NCBI GenBank assembly: GCA_041652815.1
Contig: JBAZGN010000005.1
Span: forward strand, 99,651-163,650
DNA length: 64,000 nt
From: Candidatus Omnitrophota bacterium
Lineage (GTDB): Bacteria > Omnitrophota > Gorgyraeia > Duberdicusellales > 4484-171
Direction of reading: 5' to 3'
The notes beneath the pieces are model-generated. The model had not been told where the DNA came from. It was given only the letters and a program-made list of their open reading frames with translations, and did no database searches. Shown in pieces: positions 2,381 through 52,695 of this stretch. A program made the translations under genes and the position numbers. The first letter of the stretch is position 1, and every line of letters starts with the position of its first letter.

Positions 2381-2490
2381 CACAGATTTCCGCAGATAGA
2401 AAACTTTAATAGAACATTTAGGTATTAACACAGATTATCGCAGATGTTTCCATCTGTGATAATCTGCTTACAAATCTGTGATCATCTGTG
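2381..2490. repeat. Family C palindromic element (CACAGAT / ATCTGTG units), copy 1.
   Basis: Inverted termini CACAGAT..GATCATCTGTG. Shared with 20135-20220 and 33644-33730. Sits immediately upstream of the bioY RBS. Confidence 0.7.
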
Positions 2491-3817: not shown

Positions 3818-3855
3818 CTTGTTTACTGTATATACCCCTTGCGTCCAGATACCAG

Positions 3856-3897
3856 GGGCTACGGGGTTAAGTCTCCGCCTACGGCGGAGAATTAAGG
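3856..3897. repeat. Family H module (GGGGTTAA-N3-TCCGCCTACGGCGGA-G-AATTAAGGAG) that carries the RBS of the downstream gene.
   Basis: Near-identical module at 47786-47830, also directly before a start codon. Confidence 0.5.
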
Positions 3898-3904
3898 AGT
3901 ATAA

Positions 3905-7489: not shown

Positions 7490-8893
7490 ATGAGTAAGAG
7501 ACTATTAATTATGGCAGCGATTTTGCTTTTAAGCGTTCCTGCATTTGCTGCTGTAGAAAATATCAAAGTAAGCGGTGATATCAACGAACAGGCAGTAGGC
7601 AGAGATCTTTCTTTGGGCGGCGTGAACAGAGCAGCCGGAGATGGAAGCCCTATGGATTCAGAGAGCTATCTTCTTTCCCAAGTGAGGATAAGATTTGATG
7701 CTGATTTAACAGAAAATGTTTCCGGTGTTGTTCGTTTAATCAACGAAAGAACATGGGGAAACACAGGTACAAGCGATGCGGATACAACGTATGGTGACAA
7801 CGAACACATCGCGTTGGATCTTGCTTACATTGAACTGAAAGAATTTTTGTATCAGCCTCTAAGTATTACAGTAGGCCGCCAGAATCTTCGTTATGGCAGT
7901 GCGTTAATCGTAGGCGATCCTGATACAAACATGACAGTTGAAAGTTCATCTGTCACCAACTATCGTTTTGGCGATTTGTCTTTGAGAAAATCATTCGATT
8001 CAGTAAAAGCTGTTCTTGATTTTTCTCCATGGACAATTGATGCTATTTATGCCAAAATCAATGAACCACACACATACATTAGAGATAATGTAGATCTTTG
8101 GGGTATCAACGCTAATTACCAGTGGGGTTCTTTTGACGGAGTAACTGAAGCTTATTATTTCGGTGCACAAAACAACAGAGATACTTTATCTTATGCCAAA
8201 GTTCTTTCGCAGCCGCCTGAAAACCAGGATATTACCCAGGTAATTGGTGCAAGAACGCAATTTAATCCATTTGAAAAAATGACCCTTGGATTAGAAGGTG
8301 CTTATCAGTTCGGTGATGTGCAGGCTGCGGCAGTTGCTGCAAATCCTGCTAGGCACATAAGCGCATTTGCGATTGAAGCAATGGCTGAATACAGATTTAT
8401 GACCAAGTATAACCCAACACTTGGACTGACCTATGTTTATTTAAGTGGTAATGATGACATAGGCGCAAACGGCAATAGTTATCTAACTGGTTGGGATCCG
8501 ATGTTTGAAGACCAGAGTTTGGGCGAAATTGCCAATGTGCTTTTCCCAAACAGCAACATTCAAGCTGCAAGAGTTAATGGTTCCGTTATGCCGAGGGAAG
8601 ATATTACCCTTGGTGCTTCTTACACTTGGTTGAGGCTAGCAGACAAGCTAACTGAAGCAGATAACTATCCATCATACACTCCACCACTTGGTTACTATTC
8701 CGCAAACACTTATAGCATTAACAACCTAGAAGGCTACCTTGGCAGCGAAGTTGATGCTTTCGCAACTTATGATTATACGGAAGATGTTCAGCTTAAACTT
8801 ACTGGCGCATGGTTTATACCAGGCGATTTCTTTGCAGACAACAATAATGATGTGGCATATTCAGTAAGAGGCGGAGTCAACCTTAACTTCTAA
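7490..8893 (+). CDS. Outer-membrane beta-barrel protein (porin-like).
   Basis: Signal peptide (LLLSVPAFAA), alternating amphipathic beta-strand pattern, C-terminal ...GGVNLNF with terminal Phe; GGAGGG RBS. Confidence 0.6.
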   Translation: MSKRLLIMAAILLLSVPAFAAVENIKVSGDINEQAVGRDLSLGGVNRAAGDGSPMDSESYLLSQVRIRFDADLTENVSGVVRLINERTWGNTGTSDADTTYGDNEHIALDLAYIELKEFLYQPLSITVGRQNLRYGSALIVGDPDTNMTVESSSVTNYRFGDLSLRKSFDSVKAVLDFSPWTIDAIYAKINEPHTYIRDNVDLWGINANYQWGSFDGVTEAYYFGAQNNRDTLSYAKVLSQPPENQDITQVIGARTQFNPFEKMTLGLEGAYQFGDVQAAAVAANPARHISAFAIEAMAEYRFMTKYNPTLGLTYVYLSGNDDIGANGNSYLTGWDPMFEDQSLGEIANVLFPNSNIQAARVNGSVMPREDITLGASYTWLRLADKLTEADNYPSYTPPLGYYSANTYSINNLEGYLGSEVDAFATYDYTEDVQLKLTGAWFIPGDFFADNNNDVAYSVRGGVNLNF

Positions 8894-9447: not shown

Positions 9448-9653
9448 TGAGCACATCATTTTTTCAAGCCCTGACCGCCCTGACTGCCCGCAAGGGCAGG
9501 CGTGGCAGGCGTGGCGCAGGAAAAATGATAGTGCGAATTAACCCCGAAGCGCTTCGGTTAAATTTCGCAGAAATTTAACCGATATACAGGCGCAAGGGGT
9601 ATGTATAGTAAAACATGGTATAGAATTTCAAATGAAACCTTCTAAATAAAAAA

Positions 9654-10218: not shown

Positions 10219-10307
10219 GGAGAGGTGCCGGAGCGGTTTAACGGGTACGCCTGGAGAGCGTAAGTCTGTCGAAAGACGGACCGAGAGTTCAAATCTCTCC
10301 CTCTCCG
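10219..10307 (+). tRNA. tRNA-Ser (anticodon GGA), long variable arm.
   Basis: Acceptor GGAGAGG/CCTCTCC, anticodon loop CTGGAGA, long variable arm, T-loop TTCAAAT. Confidence 0.8.
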
Positions 10308-10580
10308 TTGTCCTACCTATCGCGAGAAAACATCCAACCAGAAATGGGGATGTTTTCTCGCAACATATAGGAAAAGGACAACGGATTCCGGCGAAGCACC
10401 GCCTGAGCCGGAATATCGTTAATAATATTTCGTAAGCGTAAACCATCAAACCGAAGGGGATGGTTTTCCACAACATCTAGGAAAAGGACAACGGATTCCG
10501 GCGAGCCGACCGAGGACGTAATGTCCGAGGGAGTGCCAAGGCCTCCGGATGAGGCTCCGTCCGAGCCAGAATATAACCCT
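10308..10580 (+). repeat. tRNA-Ser-linked structured element, copy 1, with a degenerate internal tandem duplication.
   Basis: 57 nt identical to 14626-14682, including a 15-bp perfect hairpin CGCGAGAAAACATCC..GGATGTTTTCTCGCA. AGGACAACGG pairs back onto the tRNA 3' trailer CCGTTGTCCT. A second conserved ~100 nt domain (GGATTCCGGCGAG...GCCGGAAT) follows. Confidence 0.6.
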
Positions 10581-14537: not shown

Positions 14538-14625
14538 GGAGAGGTGGCTGAGCGGTTGAAAGCGCCGGTCTTGAAAACCGGTGTGGGCCTTGTGTCCACC
14601 GTGAGTTCAAATCTCACCCTCTCCG
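14538..14625 (+). tRNA. tRNA-Ser (anticodon TGA), long variable arm.
   Basis: Acceptor GGAGAGG/CCTCTCC, anticodon loop CTTGAAA, T-loop TTCAAAT. Confidence 0.8.
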
Positions 14626-14832
14626 TTGTCCTACCTATCGCGAGAAAACATCCAACCAGAAATGGGGATGTTTTCTCGCAACCTGAGCTCATTAATAAAA
14701 ATATTCAGCGAGGCTTCGCGAAGCGAAGAGGAGGAAAAGGACAACGGATTCCGGCGAGGTAACCGAGGACGTAATGTCCGAGGGAGTGCCAAGGCCTCCG
14801 GACGAGGCTCCGCCCAAGCCGGAATGTAACCC
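14626..14832 (+). repeat. tRNA-Ser-linked structured element, copy 2.
   Basis: Same 57-nt hairpin module and ~100-nt second domain as 10308-10580. Confidence 0.6.
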
Positions 14833-18790: not shown

Positions 18791-20130
18791 GCTTTATTAT
18801 TTTTATAATAATTTTGAGCATTCTTGTGGTAGCGCATGAATTTGGCCATTATCTTGCCGCGAAGCGTAATAAAGTAAAGGTAGAAAAATTTGCTATTGGT
18901 TTCGGCCCGGCACTTTTTACCAGAAAAGGCAAGGAAACCGATTTTGTAATTTGCCTTTTTCCTTTGGGCGGATATGTTAAATTGGCCGGTGATAACCGTT
19001 TAGAGCTTAAAGGAAAGGATTACGAATTTCTTTCAAAACCGGTATCGGCAAAGATAGAAATTGTATTTGCCGGGCCATTATTTAATTACGTTTTTGCTTT
19101 TGTGCTTTTCTGGTTGGTTGCGATGTTCGGTATGACTTACAAGTATGTTGACCCGGTAGTTGGCATTGTAAAGGCGGATTCTCCGGCCCAAAAAGCCGGC
19201 ATACTTAAGGGTGATGAGATTATTGAAGCTAACGGCAAGCCGGTTAAAGTATGGGATGATTTTGACAAAAGAGTTTATAAGAGCAGCACTAAAGTAGAGT
19301 TAAAAGTTAAAAGAGATAATAAAGTTATAACGTTCGATGTCCCGACCGTGAAGGGCCAGATTTTTGATGAGTTCGGCGCAAAAAGAAAAGTTTATTCCAT
19401 AGGTATTTCAGCGTATATACCGCCGGTTGTCGGTATCCTGATAGAAAATTTTCCCGCGCAGAAAGCCGGTATACAGAAGGGCGATAAAATAATTTCCGTA
19501 AATGGCACAAAAGTTAACCAATGGGAAGATATGACCAACATCATCCATAATTCTAAAGGCCCAATTGCCCTTGTTATTGAGCGTAATAACAAAACTTTTT
19601 CAATTACTGTCCCAACTAAACAGCAGGAAGTTATAGATGAAGCCGGCATCAGGAAAGAAATTTCTTTTATAGGCATTGACCGGTTTATCAAAACCAAGGT
19701 GGTTAAATATAACTTTTTTGAAGCTTTCGTAAAAGGGTTTGAAGAGGTTTACAGGGTTTCTTCCATAACCATACGAGGCTTTGGCGCAATAATTTTCAGG
19801 ATTCTTCCCTTAAAAGATGCAGTAACTGGCCCGTTGGGTATTTATAAAATCACTGCTGATACAGCTAAGCTGGGGTTACTTCCTCTTATTACTTTTATGG
19901 CGATTTTAAGCGTAAGTTTGGCGATAGTAAATTTAATACCGCTTCCTTTGTTTGACGGTGGGCATATACTGACCTTTCTTGTTGAGAAAATAAGAAAAAA
20001 GCCTTTAAGCGAAAAAACAGATAACTTACTTACACGTATCGGGTTCGCAATCATAGCTTTGATAATTGTGTTTGTTTTCTATAACGATATAGTCAGGTTT
20101 GGCCCAAAAATATGGGGAAAATGGTTTTAA
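18787..20130 (+). CDS. rseP: RseP-type site-2 (RIP) zinc metalloprotease.
   Basis: HEFGHY zinc motif, two PDZ-like segments, C-terminal LDGG. The ATG overlaps the dxr stop. Confidence 0.85.
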   Translation: MSFIIFIIILSILVVAHEFGHYLAAKRNKVKVEKFAIGFGPALFTRKGKETDFVICLFPLGGYVKLAGDNRLELKGKDYEFLSKPVSAKIEIVFAGPLFNYVFAFVLFWLVAMFGMTYKYVDPVVGIVKADSPAQKAGILKGDEIIEANGKPVKVWDDFDKRVYKSSTKVELKVKRDNKVITFDVPTVKGQIFDEFGAKRKVYSIGISAYIPPVVGILIENFPAQKAGIQKGDKIISVNGTKVNQWEDMTNIIHNSKGPIALVIERNNKTFSITVPTKQQEVIDEAGIRKEISFIGIDRFIKTKVVKYNFFEAFVKGFEEVYRVSSITIRGFGAIIFRILPLKDAVTGPLGIYKITADTAKLGLLPLITFMAILSVSLAIVNLIPLPLFDGGHILTFLVEKIRKKPLSEKTDNLLTRIGFAIIALIIVFVFYNDIVRFGPKIWGKWF

Positions 20131-20134
20131 TAAG

Positions 20135-20220
20135 CACAGATTATCACAGACGGCAGACGCAGATGACCACAGATAAAATTATCTGCGATTATCTGTTTTC
20201 CAATCTGCGATCATCTGTGT
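20135..20220. repeat. Family C palindromic element, copy 2.
   Basis: CACAGATTATCACAGA ... ATCTGCGATCATCTGTG. Located between rseP and ispG. Confidence 0.7.
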
Positions 20221-20229
20221 AATAAAAAA

Positions 20230-21273
20230 ATGACAAGGACAGTAACATTAGGCAGCTTAAAGATAGGCTCAAAATATCCGGTAAGGATAAAGGGTATGCT
20301 TAAGACCTCATACCAGAATATGGAAGGGCTTATTGCGGAAGCTAAGCTGCTTGAGAAGGAAGGAGCAGAGGCTCTGCGTATCGCGGTTCGTGAGGAAGCT
20401 GATGCAAAAATAGCAAAAGTGCTTAAGAAAGAGATAAAAATACCTATAGTTGCTGACATACATTTTCATTACAAAATTGCGTTAGTTGCTATAGAGAATG
20501 GTTTCGATGGGATAAGGCTTAACCCTTTAAATATCTATAAATTGGCTGAAGTAAAAGCCGTAGCAAAAGAGGCTAAAATATGCAAAATTCCCATAAGGGT
20601 AGGGATAAATTCAGGAGGTTTTAAAAAAGATTTTTCTTCTCCCGGGGTTCTAGCGAAGCAAATGGTTGCAACTGTAGGGCGTTATATTAGGATATTGGAG
20701 AAAGAAAAGTTCTTTGATATAATGGTATCCTTAAAGGGTTCTGATGCGGCTTCTACCATAATTGCAAATGAGCTATTTTCCAAAGAATTCGATTACCCTC
20801 TTCATCTGGGGATAACCGCCACAGGTTCATTTTTAAACGGCGTAGTTAAGTCTTCGATAGGTTTAGGCGAGCTTCTTTCTAAAGGTATTGGAAATATCAT
20901 AAGGGTGTCTCTCACAGCCCCTTCATTTTGGGAAATAAGAGTTGCAAAATATATTCTGCAGGCCCTGGGCTTACGAAAATACGGGCCTGAGATTGTATCT
21001 TGTCCGACTTGCTCGCGCTGTGAGGTAAAACTTATAGATATAGTTGAAAAATTTAATAAAGAACTCGAAAATTCTGGGTTAAGCGTGCCTATCCGGATTG
21101 CACTTATGGGTTGCGTAGTGAATGGCCCGGGCGAAGCTTACCAAGCGGATATAGGTGCTGCTTTTGGCAAGAAAAAAGCCGTTATATTCAGGAAGGATAA
21201 GATTTTAAGGCAGAGCGACGAGAATAATATAATAAAAGATTTGCTTGAAGAAGTGAGGCGGATATGGATATAA
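20230..21273 (+). CDS. ispG: 4-hydroxy-3-methylbut-2-enyl diphosphate synthase.
   Basis: GcpE blocks ADIHFHY, IRLNPLN, CPTCSRC 4Fe-4S cysteines, MGCVVNGPGE. Confidence 0.9.
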   Translation: MTRTVTLGSLKIGSKYPVRIKGMLKTSYQNMEGLIAEAKLLEKEGAEALRIAVREEADAKIAKVLKKEIKIPIVADIHFHYKIALVAIENGFDGIRLNPLNIYKLAEVKAVAKEAKICKIPIRVGINSGGFKKDFSSPGVLAKQMVATVGRYIRILEKEKFFDIMVSLKGSDAASTIIANELFSKEFDYPLHLGITATGSFLNGVVKSSIGLGELLSKGIGNIIRVSLTAPSFWEIRVAKYILQALGLRKYGPEIVSCPTCSRCEVKLIDIVEKFNKELENSGLSVPIRIALMGCVVNGPGEAYQADIGAAFGKKKAVIFRKDKILRQSDENNIIKDLLEEVRRIWI

Positions 21274-28477: not shown

Positions 28478-28490
28478 AACTAGAAGCGGA

Positions 28491-28572
28491 TATCCGCGGA
28501 TCTAAACGCGGATAAACGCCAGCGAGTTACCGTGCGTAAATCCGCGTAAATATCCGCGGCAATCCGCTTCTA
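28491..28572. repeat. Family B palindromic element (CCGCGGAT units, TAGAAGCGGAT...ATCCGCTTCTA termini), copy 1.
   Basis: Near-perfect inverted termini with internal CGCGGAT repeats. Shared with 35144-35234 and 41299-41390. Confidence 0.75.
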
Positions 28573-28585
28573 CTAACTATATACC

Positions 28586-32950: not shown

Positions 32951-33652
32951 ATGATTATCGACGTAATAACTATTTTTCCAAGGATGTTTACGCCGGTTGT
33001 GGATGAATCTATCATCAAAAGGGCTAAAGATAAAGGCCTTTTAAAAATAAATTTACACGACTTAAGAAATTACACTAATGATCCGCATAAAAAAATTGAT
33101 GCCCCTGCTTATGGCGGAGGAGGCATGGTATTTAAGCCAGAGCCAGTATTTGGCGCAGTTGAACATATTCTCGGATATAAAATATATCCGAAAAAAAAGG
33201 CCGGCAAGAATAAAAAGATTATTCTTTTTAGCCCACAGGGGAAAAAATTGAACCAGCAAATTTTAAAAAAATTTCTTAACTATGAAAGGCTAATTCTTAT
33301 AGCCCCGCGTTATGAAGGGGTAGATGAACGGGTAGCCAAGCATTTGGCTGAAGAAGAGCTTTCTATAGGCGATTACATTTTAAGCGGAGCGGAACTTGCG
33401 GCAATGGTTTTTATAGATTCAATTACCAGGCTTATCCCGGGCGTTGTTTCTGATAGAAGCTCGATAGAAAACGAAAGTTTTGAGAACGGACTTCTTGATT
33501 ATCCCGCGTATACAAGGCCGGAGGATTTTCGCGGGCTGAAAGCCCCCGAAGTTTTACTTTCCGGAAACCACGATAAGATAAAAAAATGGCGTAAGGATAA
33601 AGCGTATGAGGCAACAAAAAAGAAAAGGCCTGATTTATTAAAACACAGATGA
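32951..33652 (+). CDS. trmD: tRNA (guanine37-N1)-methyltransferase.
   Basis: MIIDVITIFPRMF N-terminus and SPOUT knot motifs. The stop codon lies inside the family C element. Confidence 0.9.
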   Translation: MIIDVITIFPRMFTPVVDESIIKRAKDKGLLKINLHDLRNYTNDPHKKIDAPAYGGGGMVFKPEPVFGAVEHILGYKIYPKKKAGKNKKIILFSPQGKKLNQQILKKFLNYERLILIAPRYEGVDERVAKHLAEEELSIGDYILSGAELAAMVFIDSITRLIPGVVSDRSSIENESFENGLLDYPAYTRPEDFRGLKAPEVLLSGNHDKIKKWRKDKAYEATKKKRPDLLKHR

Positions 33653-33730
33653 TCACAGACAAGAAATCACAGATGATCGCAGATAAAATCATCTGTGATC
33701 ATCCGCTTACAAATCTGTGCTAATCTGTGT
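33644..33730. repeat. Family C palindromic element, copy 3. It overlaps the trmD stop and precedes the rplS RBS.
   Basis: CACAGATGATCACAGA ... ATCTGTGATCATC...ATCTGTG. The TGA stop of trmD is inside the first unit. Confidence 0.7.
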
Positions 33731-34800: not shown

Positions 34801-35166
34801 ATGCAAAAAGGTAAGTTTTACGAAGATAAAGCGGCAAATTATCTGAAACTTAAAGGCTACAGTATCCTAAAAAGAAATTTTCGTTCTCCTTTCGGAGAGA
34901 TTGATATTATCGCAACGGATGAGGGCTATATCTGTTTCATTGAAGTAAAAGCAAGAAATTATAATTATCTTGTATCCGGTAAAGAGGCAATAGATTTTAG
35001 AAAAATAGAAAAGATTAAAAAAACCGCTCTTTTTTACGCATCCGGTAATTTAGACAGGCTTTTTAGGTTCGATGTCCTGGAGATAATCCAGGGCAAGGAT
35101 TTTCGTGAATATAACCTCATAAAAGGAGCGTTTGATTGTAGCGTAGAAGCGGATAGCCGCGGATAG
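34801..35166 (+). CDS. yraN: YraN-family (UPF0102) endonuclease-like protein.
   Basis: GE.DIIA...FIEVKAR restriction-endonuclease-like core; conserved rnhB-yraN adjacency. The last ~7 codons are supplied by the family B element. Confidence 0.7.
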   Translation: MQKGKFYEDKAANYLKLKGYSILKRNFRSPFGEIDIIATDEGYICFIEVKARNYNYLVSGKEAIDFRKIEKIKKTALFYASGNLDRLFRFDVLEIIQGKDFREYNLIKGAFDCSVEADSRG

Positions 35167-41298: not shown

Positions 41299-41390
41299 TA
41301 GAAGCGGATACACGCGGATTTATACGCGGATAAACGCCAGCGAGTTCGCTTGCGTGAATCCGCGTCAATATCCGCGGATATCCGCTTCTA
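41299..41390. repeat. Family B palindromic element, copy 3.
   Basis: TAGAAGCGGATACACGCGGAT ... ATCCGCGGATATCCGCTTCTA, between guaA and dnaE. Confidence 0.75.
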
Positions 41391-41407
41391 TTATTAAGCA
41401 TATAAAT

Positions 41408-44400: not shown

Positions 44401-44815
44401 TTTAAAAATTGAAGATGAGACTTCAACTGTCGAGGTTTTTGTCTTTCCCAGGCTTTTTGCCGAAGCTGCTGCCGATATCAAGGAAAAAAGCATAATCGTT
44501 ATAAAGGGTAAACTTGAATCCAAAGAAAGAGCGCCCAAGATTTTAGCCGCTAAGATTATCCCGATTGAGCGTATTTTTGACAATATCAAAGGCCTTAATA
44601 TCGCCATAAACCAGGAGAAATTTCCTCTGGCGAATCTAAAAACCATTTTTTTAAATAATAGAGGAACAACCCCGGTTGTTTTTGCCTTTCGAAACGCAAA
44701 GCTTAATGGTGTTAAAATTAAAACCGCCAATCAATTCTGCCTAAAACTTACTGAAAACGCCCTAAAGGAAATTGGTGCGTTAATAGGGGATGAGAATCTT
44801 TCGTTGAGCCTCTAA
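41408..44815 (+). CDS. dnaE: DNA polymerase III alpha subunit.
   Basis: PHP N-terminus FIHLHVHTQYSLLDGA, palm and fingers blocks, OB fold. The annotated upstream ORF part is read-through of the repeat. Confidence 0.9.
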   Translation: MAHSDFIHLHVHTQYSLLDGACQLNRLIEKAVKFKLPGLAITDHGNLFGAVKFYEECMDAGIKPIIGCEVYVAPDSRFKKEYKNEDAGNYHLILLAKDEQGYKNLIKLVSLAHLEGFYYKPRIDKEILSQHNKGLIGLSACLKGEIASAIIADDIKGAYKKCDEYLQILGKGNFYLEIMENGLKEQAKANKHLLKISKELDVPVVATNDIHYLEKNESFAHEVLLCIQTQTTLNDPNRFKFNSDTFYFRSPDEMKAIFKEAPEAIKNTLEVMQKCNLVMDFSKIHLPRFPIPENETENGYLQKIVTENLPKRYSEVTDEVNKRLEYELGVINSTGFSSYFLIIWDLIKYAKENNIPVGPGRGSAAGSIVSFLLGITDVDPLKYDLLFERFLNPARISMPDIDMDFCYEKRSRVLEYVGKKYGEANVAQIITFGTMLARAVVRDVGRAMGHSYADVDKIAKMIPVIVGHQVTLKEALSQSPELSQVYQSDAGIKRLIDVAIQLEGLSRHASTHAAGVVISDKPLMERIPLIRGAEEEIVTGFDMESLEKTGLLKMDFLGLKTLTVIDSTVKIIKRTKGVEVDITNLPLDDKKTFSLLSQADTIGVFQLESRGMREILRKLIPTRFEDLIAVLALYRPGPLGSGMVDDFIERKQGKKPVSYGHPKLESILKETYGIILYQEQTMQIASKLAGFSLSQADLLRKAIGKKIPEIMEEQRNLFVEGSKKNGVSQRIATQIFDLIDYFSGYGFNKSHSTAYALISYRTAYLKANYPVEFMAALLTSERTNTDKIVEYVNEVNHMGMKVLPPDINTSFANFTVTDEKNIRFGLLAIKNVGTTALDNIIEIRKQKKFDDFFEFCDRVDGRVVNKKVLESLIKSGAMDSFKLKRAQMTAMLDKILAKTTKKEDPSQFLLFTAPKKQQEIPDVEEWPLLQILSFEKSLLGIYVTSHPLYSYANTVKHLHRQEIISLYEQESREEVVICGIVEKARIITTKRSGERMAILKIEDETSTVEVFVFPRLFAEAAADIKEKSIIVIKGKLESKERAPKILAAKIIPIERIFDNIKGLNIAINQEKFPLANLKTIFLNNRGTTPVVFAFRNAKLNGVKIKTANQFCLKLTENALKEIGALIGDENLSLSL

Positions 44816-44818
44816 TTA

Positions 44819-44873
44819 AGGTTACGAAAGTTACGAGGGTTACGCAGGTTACGAAGGTTACGGAAGTTACATT
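44819..44873. repeat. Family A array: six tandem 9-mers of GTTACGNNG (GGTTACGAA type).
   Basis: Strict 9-bp periodicity, directly after the dnaE stop. Confidence 0.75.
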
Positions 44874-44948
44874 TAAAAGACCTGATTTATTGTAATCTAT
44901 GTGATTTTCGTAGCTTTCGCGATCTTAACATATAATTTGTATAAACTC

Positions 44949-46263: not shown

Positions 46264-46290
46264 CGTACCTAATTATCTATATCAATTTTA

Positions 46291-46432
46291 GGTTACGAAG
46301 GTTACGAAGGCCAACAGGCCACCCTGTTGGGTAGGTTACGAATGTTACAATAAATCAAGTGATTTAAATGTAACCTTCGTAACTTCCGTAACCTGCCTGC
46401 CGGCAGGCAGGCATCCGTAACCTTCGTAACCT
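46291..46432. repeat. Family A palindromic element (GGTTACGAA arrays in inverted orientation with inner GC hairpins).
   Basis: TAGGTTACGAAGGTTACGAAGG ... TGTAACCTTCGTAACTTCCGTAACC ... CCGTAACCTTCGTAACC. Inner hairpins are CCAACAGG-CCAC-CCTGTTGG and CCTGCCTGCC-GGCAGGCAGG. Confidence 0.75.
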
Positions 46433-46473
46433 AAATTGTAATTCGTGGCAATTCGTCTTTAAAAAGAACCACC

Positions 46474-47687: not shown

Positions 47688-47785
47688 TAAATTCCAAGGA
47701 CGCAATACTTAATTATAGAAATACCCCTCGCGCCTGTATATCGTGTAAATTTTCACGCTCACTTCGCTCGCAGAAAATTTACACG

Positions 47786-47830
47786 AAGCGCTTCGGGGTT
47801 AATTTTCCGCCTGCGGCGGAAAATTAAGGA
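47786..47830. repeat. Family H module (GGGGTTAA-TTT-TCCGCCTGCGGCGGA-A-AATTAAGGAGG) that carries the RBS.
   Basis: Near-identical to 3856-3897; preceded by the CGAAGCGCTTCG palindrome also seen at 9551. Confidence 0.5.
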
Positions 47831-47836
47831 GGTATT

Positions 47837-49393: not shown

Positions 49394-49456
49394 GGTAACC
49401 TTCGTAACTTTCGTAACCTACGTAACCTTCGTAACCAGAGCCAACAGGCTCTTCTA
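49394..49456. repeat. Family A array (GGTAACCTTCGTAAC units, inverted orientation) plus a GC hairpin.
   Basis: Five tandem 9-mers GTAACNTNC, then AGAGCCAACAGGCTCT. Confidence 0.7.
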
Positions 49457-51077: not shown

Positions 51078-51096
51078 AAAAATATTTTGATATTCA

Positions 51097-51202
51097 GGTT
51101 ACGAAAGTTACGAAGGTTACGCAGGTTACGAATGTTACAATAAATCAAGTGTTTCAAGTGTAACTTTCGTAACATTCGTAACTTCCCGTAACATCCGTAA
51201 CC
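51097..51202. repeat. Family A long palindrome: five GGTTACGAA 9-mers, a ~25-nt centre, then five inverted 9-mers.
   Basis: GGTTACGAAAGTTACGAAGGTTACGCAGGTTACGAATGTTACA ... TGTAACTTTCGTAACATTCGTAACTTCCCGTAACATCCGTAACC. Confidence 0.8.
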
Positions 51203-52599: not shown

Positions 52600-52678
52600 G
52601 CTTTCAGTTGTCAGCCGTCAGCTATCAGCAGGTTTTATAGAAGCTGAAGACTGAAAGCTGAGAGCTGACAGCTTAAAG
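52600..52678. repeat. Family G palindrome (CAGCTATCAGC / GCTGACAGC units).
   Basis: GCTTTCAGTTGTCAGCCGTCAGCTATCAGC...GCTGAAGACTGAAAGCTGAGAGCTGACAGC. A partial relative is at 22515-22560. Confidence 0.6.
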
Positions 52679-52695
52679 CAAAAAAGGAGGGTTCC

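Follow-up and report, generated by a model that had tools for sequence, protein, structure and literature searches.

Family C, a palindromic repeat present three times in a 64,000-nucleotide stretch of a Candidatus Omnitrophota genome (GenBank contig JBAZGN010000005.1, positions 99,651 to 163,650; this whole stretch is referred to as the window), is probably the gene-less form of a selfish cassette, similar to a miniature inverted-repeat transposable element (MITE). The full-length form of the cassette holds a gene of the GxxExxY family (TIGR04256/PF13366), encoding ~125 amino acids, in its loop. The arms of Family C are the ends of this cassette, and Family C is one of about ten families of unit-repeat hairpins that fill the intergenic spacers of this genome; neither point was in an earlier note on the window, whose observations were partly confirmed and whose interpretation was partly supported, as described below.

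Family C arms and the GxxExxY gene

The building block of Family C is a 17-bp double unit, CACAGAT-nAT-CRCAGAT, of which each element has two direct and two inverted copies. Their order is an outer double unit, in which the last base may be T or C, then a spacer, 7-8 nt long except in the copy at 2381 (31 nt), an inner double unit, a loop of 4-6 nt and the mirror image of the whole. The outer double units mirror each other as terminal inverted repeats do, in 17 of 17 columns and with 87% of cells paired. The window copies, to which no strand is assigned, and the features that they contain are as follows.

2381..2490: Family C copy 5′ of bioY; 110 nt, covariance model score 50-53 bits, left spacer longer (31 nt)
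20135..20219: Family C copy between rseP and ispG; 85 nt, 93.5 bits; rseP stop at 20128-20130, ispG ATG at 20230
20163..20222, + strand: mini-ORF MTTDKIICDYLFSNLRSSV with its stop, beginning inside the copy at 20135 and stopping 7 nt 5′ of the ispG ATG
33644..33729: Family C copy between trmD and rplS; 86 nt, 96 bits; outer-left double unit 33644-33660, inner-left 33668-33684, loop AAAATC, inner-right 33691-33707, outer-right 33713-33729
33650..33652, + strand: trmD stop TGA, within the first unit (CAC AGA TGA) and overlapping the ATG at 33649 (ATGA)
33649..33723, + strand: mini-ORF MITDKKSQMIADKIICDHPLTNLC with its stop, 24 codons; equivalent to a GxxExxY cassette reduced to its N-terminal leader and C-terminal tail, without the protein body

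The earlier note had reported these three CACAGAT/ATCTGTG palindromes, which were found at 110, 85 and 86 nt, and had named the genes trmD, rplS, rseP, ispG and bioY correctly. A covariance model trained on 23 Family C members detected exactly the three copies in the window, at 50-96 bits; the next matches (38 bits or less) were other unit families. CACAGAT occurs 18 times in the window where 2.8 occurrences are expected, and 13 of the 18 are inside the three copies. Whichever strand is folded, each copy has a predicted energy of -36 to -42 kcal/mol (z about -7). The 16-nt termini described as shared are exact in one arm per copy and not in both.

In four contigs (L175, L172, L221 and L240) the arms are 370-490 nt apart and enclose a single open reading frame (ORF). 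The ORF at 612-1013 of L175 matches TIGR04256 (1e-33) and PF13366 (2e-33), and is therefore a GxxExxY gene of the PD-(D/E)XK group. Family C-type arms surround a GxxExxY gene in L175, L221, L224, L172, L240, L062, L125, L028 and L018, and the same 2+2 double units as in the window copies are found in L175, L221, L224 and L258-L262. A profile search of the collected loci gave 12 GxxExxY ORFs, 11 of which are bracketed by CRCAGAT arrays. Besides Omnitrophota-like contigs, these 11 come from Zixibacteria, Saprospiraceae, Chitinophaga, Anaerolineales and a Bifidobacteriaceae bin; the twelfth is located off the search pattern and is flanked by CACAGTG-type units. GxxExxY was the only ORF found between Family C arms in the collected loci, where no transposase was seen and other matches were host genes located between two separate elements.

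Because these loci had been chosen by the repeat, two tests that start from the protein were carried out. A tblastn search against plasmids gave eight GxxExxY genes, five with inverted flanks of CRCRGA-type units, two with direct-repeat flanks and one with neither. All six that have annotated neighbour genes are co-directional with them. The inverted flanks are listed by host.

Bacteroides: CACAGAGGA, three times
Bernardetia: CACAGAGA
Treponema: CACACGGATTCG
Gemmatirosa: CGCAGAGGA, 3+3
Sphingomonas: CGCGAAGG, between fabD and fabG

The second test used homologues of the L175 protein, of which there were 315 matches, 75-87% identical and including Omnitrophota and Nitrospira; the best 120 of the 315 were examined. 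In 77 of these 120 the N-terminus is the unit-encoded M-I-[AT]-D, and most others begin with M-x-[TA]-D, as encoded by ATGnnnRCAGAT, which places the cassette start codon inside a double unit. In all five contigs L258-L262 (representing two proteins, one of them shared by four contigs), the upstream host gene takes its stop from the TGA of the first unit, and this TGA and the cassette ATG overlap as ATGA.

The window copies contain only mini-ORFs of 19-24 codons. The leader of the mini-ORF at 33649..33723, MITDKKSQMIAD..., agrees with the cassette N-termini MITDKKTQMTTDYIYKDLT (P0245, P0253) and MITDKKTQMTTD..., and its tail agrees with cassette read-through tails (...NDVCDHL). Since both leader and tail match cassette termini, the window copies have the cassette ends without the protein body. 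The two states were also found at one site: a right boundary 5′ of the same orthologous downstream gene belongs to a gene-carrying element in L224 and to gene-less elements in L026 and L208, which suggests that the two forms interconvert in place.

GxxExxY proteins retain the catalytic D...E-x-K residues without exception. An AlphaFold2 model (predicted local distance difference test score 88) has a PD-(D/E)XK fold, with Cas4 and restriction endonucleases as the closest solved structures. On the basis of the invariant residues and this model, the protein looks like an active nuclease. GxxExxY, or PDDEXK_3, is a widespread family listed as "function unknown" (PMC3424549), and our literature search, which covered the exact repeat, repeats of Omnitrophota and GxxExxY/PDDEXK_3, returned nothing that links the family to repeats or DNA elements.

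Insertion niche and turnover at orthologous sites

Family C proved to be dispersed, as the earlier note had suggested, and is widespread in Omnitrophota bacteria. A pattern scan of metagenome contigs together with a genome scan gave at least 94 distinct full palindromes with the same layout, with a median length of 86 nt and up to three copies on some contigs. About 90 copies are additional to those of the window, on other contigs, and these are intergenic. The flanks are A/T-rich, T being preferred directly outside the terminal unit. Target-site duplications were not apparent, as direct flank matches of 2 nt (7/94), 3 nt (6/94) and 5 nt (0/94) are at chance level. The copy at 33644 is 93% identical to copies in L185 and L193 and 90% identical to those in L184, L234 and L235, all at non-orthologous sites; the TrmD of L006, from the same sample as L193, is only ~83% identical to that of the window. 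The nearest relative of the copy at 2381, in L226, is 77% identical to it. The loop AAAAT is common to gene-less copies at different loci, which argues that the gene-less form propagates as a unit. The right arm has expanded to long tandem arrays in L224 (561-685, 11 units) and L244 (10209-11457, more than 1 kb of ATCTGTG-type units), and the number of units in the arms appears to be unstable.

Sixty-seven copies have a gene on both sides, and in 54 of these the order is stop, element, start; in 11 the flanking genes converge on the element, and in 2 they diverge from it. The distance from the host stop to the start of the element is usually 0-5 nt. At ~10 element ends in other contigs the host stop is itself the TGA of CACAGATGA (distance -9 or -10). 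This is also the case for trmD, where the first unit provides the last two codons and the stop as the earlier note had proposed, and stop-codon donation is a recurrent feature of Family C rather than a single event. The trmD product, which is 100% identical to a protein of a Candidatus Omnitrophota metagenome-assembled genome, ends in ...RPDLLKHR. Among the 60 closest listed TrmD homologues, conservation extends through RPDLL and is followed by 0-16 variable residues, and no other member ends in KHR. The comparison of C-termini, like the empty sites described below, bears out the proposal that an insertion remodelled the 3′ end of trmD, and its effect on the protein is small, involving two residues of a tail that varies among all homologues.

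Two of the junctions occupied in the window were compared with the orthologous junctions of relatives.

trmD-rplS in L004 (TrmD 84% identical): empty 20-nt spacer, Shine-Dalgarno (SD) sequence already present
trmD-rplS in L006 (TrmD 83%): empty 22-nt spacer, SD already present
trmD-rplS in L002 (TrmD 92%; from a sample shared with the identical contig L001): TAGCGT-unit hairpin at 804-887, the first unit of which gives the trmD TAG stop
trmD-rplS in L003 (TrmD 87%): unrelated 164-nt insert (7801-7964)
rseP-ispG in the window: Family C
rseP-ispG in L253 (IspG 92%): TCAGC/GCTGA-unit hairpin at 2533-2592, with the same flanks
rseP-ispG in L254 (IspG 82%): same TCAGC/GCTGA-unit hairpin as in L253, at 2427-2490
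rseP-ispG in L256 (IspG 82%): empty 17-nt spacer

The relatives with empty 20-22-nt spacers have other TrmD C-termini. Presence or absence at orthologous sites is thus polymorphic, with trmD-rplS empty in L004 and L006 and rseP-ispG empty in L256. Because orthologous junctions are empty or otherwise filled, Family C can be regarded as an insertion that undergoes turnover among close relatives. One and the same narrow gap, from stop codon to SD, accommodates different hairpin families, and the hairpin of L253 and L254, which lies at the exact Family C position, implies that one hairpin family replaced another between conserved flanks.

The SD reads ACGGAGG in the relatives' empty sites, and its presence there shows that it is part of the host gene and not of the element. 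The earlier note had held that every copy ends in TGTGTATAAAAGGAGG, ~15 nt before a ribosome-binding site, and that the elements may carry promoter or ribosome-binding information. That ending is found at 2381 only; the copy at 33644 has TGTGTACCCAAAGGAGG and that at 20135 has TGTGTAATAAAAAAATG, without an SD. The elements end 7-8 nt 5′ of the SD and 17-18 nt 5′ of the ATG. An element-borne promoter or ribosome-binding site was rejected, as no + strand sigma-70-like site is present inside any copy, TATAAA is confined to a single copy, and empty sites already have the SD. A promoter-like site does lie 5′ of the copy at 2381 (2338-2366), and this copy, being downstream of it, is probably within the bioY 5′ untranslated region. 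The copy at 20135 is followed by TAATAAAAAAATG (window 20220-20232), and ispG has no SD; together with a mini-ORF that stops 7 nt before the ATG, this hints that ispG translation depends on reinitiation after the mini-ORF at 20163..20222.

Constraint on the units, mechanism and competing explanations

Whether primary sequence or secondary structure is conserved was assessed in 23 aligned copies, in which 87% of cells in the two 17-bp helices pair. Compensatory changes were found in 3 cells as compared with 18.7 in shuffles, and are therefore rarer than expected. Twenty-two of the 23 sequences lack a pair at the first outer linker column, and mismatches are frequent at the A/G positions. Over all copies, the two arms are correlated only loosely in their A/G state (odds ratio 3.8), and linker-base complementarity between the arms is no better than chance. 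When copies were oriented by their host genes, sense and antisense fold energies did not differ (p=0.58). An Rfam scan of the window brought tRNAs alone to the gathering score. The few compensatory changes and strand-equal folds argue for constraint on the unit sequence in both arms, as opposed to pairing in a transcript, and selection on RNA structure was rejected as the explanation. Constraint of this kind in both arms points to protein recognition sites in inverted arrays, which, judged from sequence, is most likely what the Family C units are. An intrinsic terminator was likewise rejected: there is no U-tract and no + strand terminator-like call at any copy, and the tails read TACCCAAAGG, TATAAAAGG and TAATAAAAAA.

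The best candidate for the unit-binding protein is the GxxExxY nuclease acting in trans, with the palindrome a by-product of the inverted arrangement of units. We suggest that the nuclease recognises, and may cut, phased CACAGAT units and would drive the movement or copying of anything that they bound, including the gene-less copies. The element would insert in, or survive only in, the short gap between a host stop and the next SD, without target-site duplication. ATGA is present in every 10-nt unit, so that a host ORF displaced by the element would meet a stop in the first or second unit. For the same reason the cassette ORF, or the leftover mini-ORF, would be coupled in its translation to the host gene. 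The transcript hairpin might be processed in the manner of the intervening sequences (IVS) of 23S rRNA.

These IVS, for example those of Coxiella burnetii, Leptospira and Salmonella, are by analogy the closest described system. They are selfish stem-loops with or without a small ORF, are excised by RNase III, and have an unclear origin and function (PMC4990558). In the Coxiella IVS, tandem GACAGAT heptamers of variable number lie in the stem beside the start of the ORF, and RNase III cuts at the first repeat (PMC4990558). Like Family C, IVS have inverted repeats that form a long stem and a loop with a small ORF or nothing, and their occurrence is sporadic and strain-variable. The Coxiella repeat and the Family C unit have the core ACAGAT in common, a likeness drawn from the published description of the IVS. 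IVS are located in helices 9, 25 or 45 of 23S rRNA, whereas Family C lies between protein-coding genes in a window that has no rRNA; the IVS ORF is S23p, a four-helix bundle, and that of Family C is GxxExxY; and the Coxiella repeats are contiguous heptamers, unlike the 10-nt phased units of Family C.

Other mobile elements resemble Family C in part. MITEs such as Correia/NEMIS and RUP are also ~100 bp long, with terminal inverted repeats, many intergenic copies that are co-transcribed with their neighbours, presence/absence polymorphism and a longer gene-carrying form with the same ends. Family C differs from them in having no target-site duplication, a small PD-(D/E)XK nuclease as its partner, and arms made of phased 7-mer arrays. 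Repetitive extragenic palindromes and their mosaic clusters (REP/BIME), with the associated Y1 transposase RAYT, share with Family C the lack of target duplications, the occurrence of several families per genome and a cognate gene flanked by its own repeats. Family C, however, has no GTAG-type 5′ tetranucleotide, consists of four double units as opposed to one imperfect palindrome of 20-40 nt, and has a PD-(D/E)XK partner where that of REP/BIME is HUH/Y1. Inspection of the collected loci revealed no Y1/HUH ORF between arms; RAYT was not searched by profile in them. Family C behaves like a MITE or REP yet fits neither definition, having no target duplication, no transposase and no REP-type palindrome. 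Free-standing homing endonuclease genes, such as seg and mob of phage T4, resemble the cassette in being small nuclease genes wedged between conserved co-directional genes, patchy among close relatives and expressed from host transcripts; they are single-site genes without repeated inverted arms or dispersed gene-less derivatives, and target cleavage by GxxExxY is putative. Rickettsia palindromic elements can likewise add codons to host ORFs, although they insert in-frame inside genes, without unit arrays or a partner gene, whereas Family C touches the last codons and stop only.

Several observations weigh against the derivation of Family C from a GxxExxY cassette. The absence of a target-site duplication fits no well-characterised transposition chemistry for a lone PD-(D/E)XK enzyme, and the window holds many other unit families for which no partner gene is known. 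No GxxExxY gene or remnant was found in the window by tblastn and jackhmmer, and no decayed GxxExxY genes were found in the longer loops of other copies, so that gene loss, if any, was clean. In addition, the same association fits both a gene lost from a cassette and a gene that homed into a hairpin.

The latter is the main rival explanation, in which the association is read in the reversed direction: hairpins would be autonomous, REP-like repeats spread by other machinery, and GxxExxY, acting like a homing endonuclease, would cut empty hairpins and be copied into the loop by recombination between the arms. Gene-less copies outnumber gene-carrying ones by ~15 to 1, their loops are common to different loci and free of gene remnants, and one site occurs in both states, all of which this order of events would accommodate, as it would the 75-87% identity of GxxExxY across Omnitrophota and Nitrospira if the gene is a recently spreading homing gene. 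It leaves the dispersal of the hairpins themselves without an explanation, arms of 40 nt are short for recombinational homing, and no other candidate for a mobilising enzyme was found in ~1.7 Mb of element-rich loci by a search that was not exhaustive. We consider this explanation unlikely, though it deserves the most attention among the alternatives. A beneficial RNA element of the host, whether an mRNA stabiliser, an RNase III site, a terminator or attenuator, or a coupling device, with an incidental link to GxxExxY, is improbable. The strong fold would suit such a role, as would the 54 of 67 two-sided contexts that are co-directional (stop, element, start), the mini-ORFs that end just 5′ of a downstream start, the lack of an SD at ispG, and the precedent of the Coxiella 23S rRNA IVS, whose stem with GACAGAT repeats is cut by RNase III (PMC4990558). 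Compensatory changes are lacking, however, and variable positions are not kept paired; sense and antisense are symmetric; there is neither a U-tract nor a + strand terminator call; and close relatives have either nothing or an unrelated hairpin at these junctions. RNase III processing of a Family C transcript may nevertheless be a consequence.

Two further explanations are far less probable. Tn7, Mu and IS21 have terminal inverted repeats with multiple sub-terminal sites, and the ends of Family C resemble theirs; this, with the high copy number and the presence/absence polymorphism, would be expected of a conventional MITE derived from an insertion sequence with a DDE transposase that binds repeated sites in its terminal inverted repeats. 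There is no target-site duplication (2-nt flank matches in 7/94, as by chance), the termini are 5′-CA...TG-3′ and not TG...CA, and the sole ORF found between the arms is GxxExxY and never a transposase, which makes this origin very improbable. Least probable of all is that the arms are operator arrays, placed before genes, for a host regulator of 10-bp-phased direct repeats of the OmpR/PhoB type. Direct heptamers with a 10-bp phase just 5′ of start codons have this appearance, but the flanking genes have housekeeping functions unrelated to one another, eleven copies lie between convergent gene ends, the elements differ between strains, and in many phyla these same units surround a nuclease gene.

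If Family C does derive from a GxxExxY cassette, this protein family gains defined DNA ends, an insertion niche between stop and SD, an ATGA-coupled expression strategy and a large population of gene-less derivatives. Its function becomes a directly testable hypothesis, namely that the protein binds and cuts CACAGATGATCACAGAT arrays, with mobilisation occurring in trans, and a selfish, mobile lifestyle of the family is likely. We raise more tentatively, as a conjecture with somewhat less than even prospects, that GxxExxY and phased CRCRGA(T/G) arrays form an unrecognised, cross-phylum class of mobile element: nuclease-driven, without target-site duplication, located at host stops with ATGA coupling, rich in gene-less hairpin derivatives, and with the 23S rRNA IVS as its rRNA-resident relatives. 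The value added by this analysis lies in tying Family C to a nuclease family that is still uncharacterised and to elements of the IVS type, and it puts forward a concrete possibility for how the 23S rRNA IVS arose.

Other unit-repeat hairpins and repeats

All plausible genes in the window are on the + strand, and unit-repeat hairpins are found in ~20 of its 33 intergenic gaps of at least 45 nt; the cassette hypothesis would account for Omnitrophota intergenic spacers being packed with such hairpins. One family has the same architecture as Family C and a unit, CGCGGAT, that is one base from CGCAGAT. Its copies, listed without strand and with their scores under covariance model R1, are not Family C.

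28481..28575: CGCGGAT-unit hairpin, 31 bits
35144..35241: CGCGGAT-unit hairpin, 38 bits; gives the last ~7 codons and the TAG stop of the gene at 34801-35166
41299..41393: CGCGGAT-unit hairpin, third copy, 31 bits

The tail of the TrmD homologue P0043, ...ADIRGSSARGG, resembles a translated GCGGAT-type element. Palindromes with the 9-nt unit GGTTACGAA, of Family C architecture and unrelated unit, are located at 44797-44919, 46282-46440, 49395-49437, 51083-51193 and also 1361-1385, and the TCAGC/GCTGA-unit hairpin is present at 52600-52695.

Start-site mis-calls in public annotations arise from unit-repeat hairpins, which carry ATGs in several frames. The IspG call of L253 (2501-3649; P0121, 382 amino acids) is extended by 35 residues into the upstream hairpin. 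Hairpins of this type inflate and mis-extend gene calls, as exemplified by TrmD tails and the 382-residue IspG P0121.

At 3851-3899, 47783-47831 and 9536-9565 (inverted) of the window, a conserved module, GCGCTTCGGGGTTAAnTTTCCGCC...GGCGGAAAATTAAGGAG, lies directly against start codons, with the SD as part of it. It also fills the trmD-rplS spacer of L003 (7801-7964), and may be a portable 5′ untranslated region or promoter module. Repeats that are 92-98% identical lie downstream of tRNA genes (10280-10364 and 14598-14682; 10479-10579 and 14732-14832); they include three copies of GGAAAAGGACAACGGATTCCGGCGA (10346, 10456 and 14709) and have no Rfam match. In rumen Prevotella contigs (L011, 680-1320; L035; L045), clusters of palindromes of ~140-190 bp were observed, with three CACAGATTA units at each end and no ORF inside.

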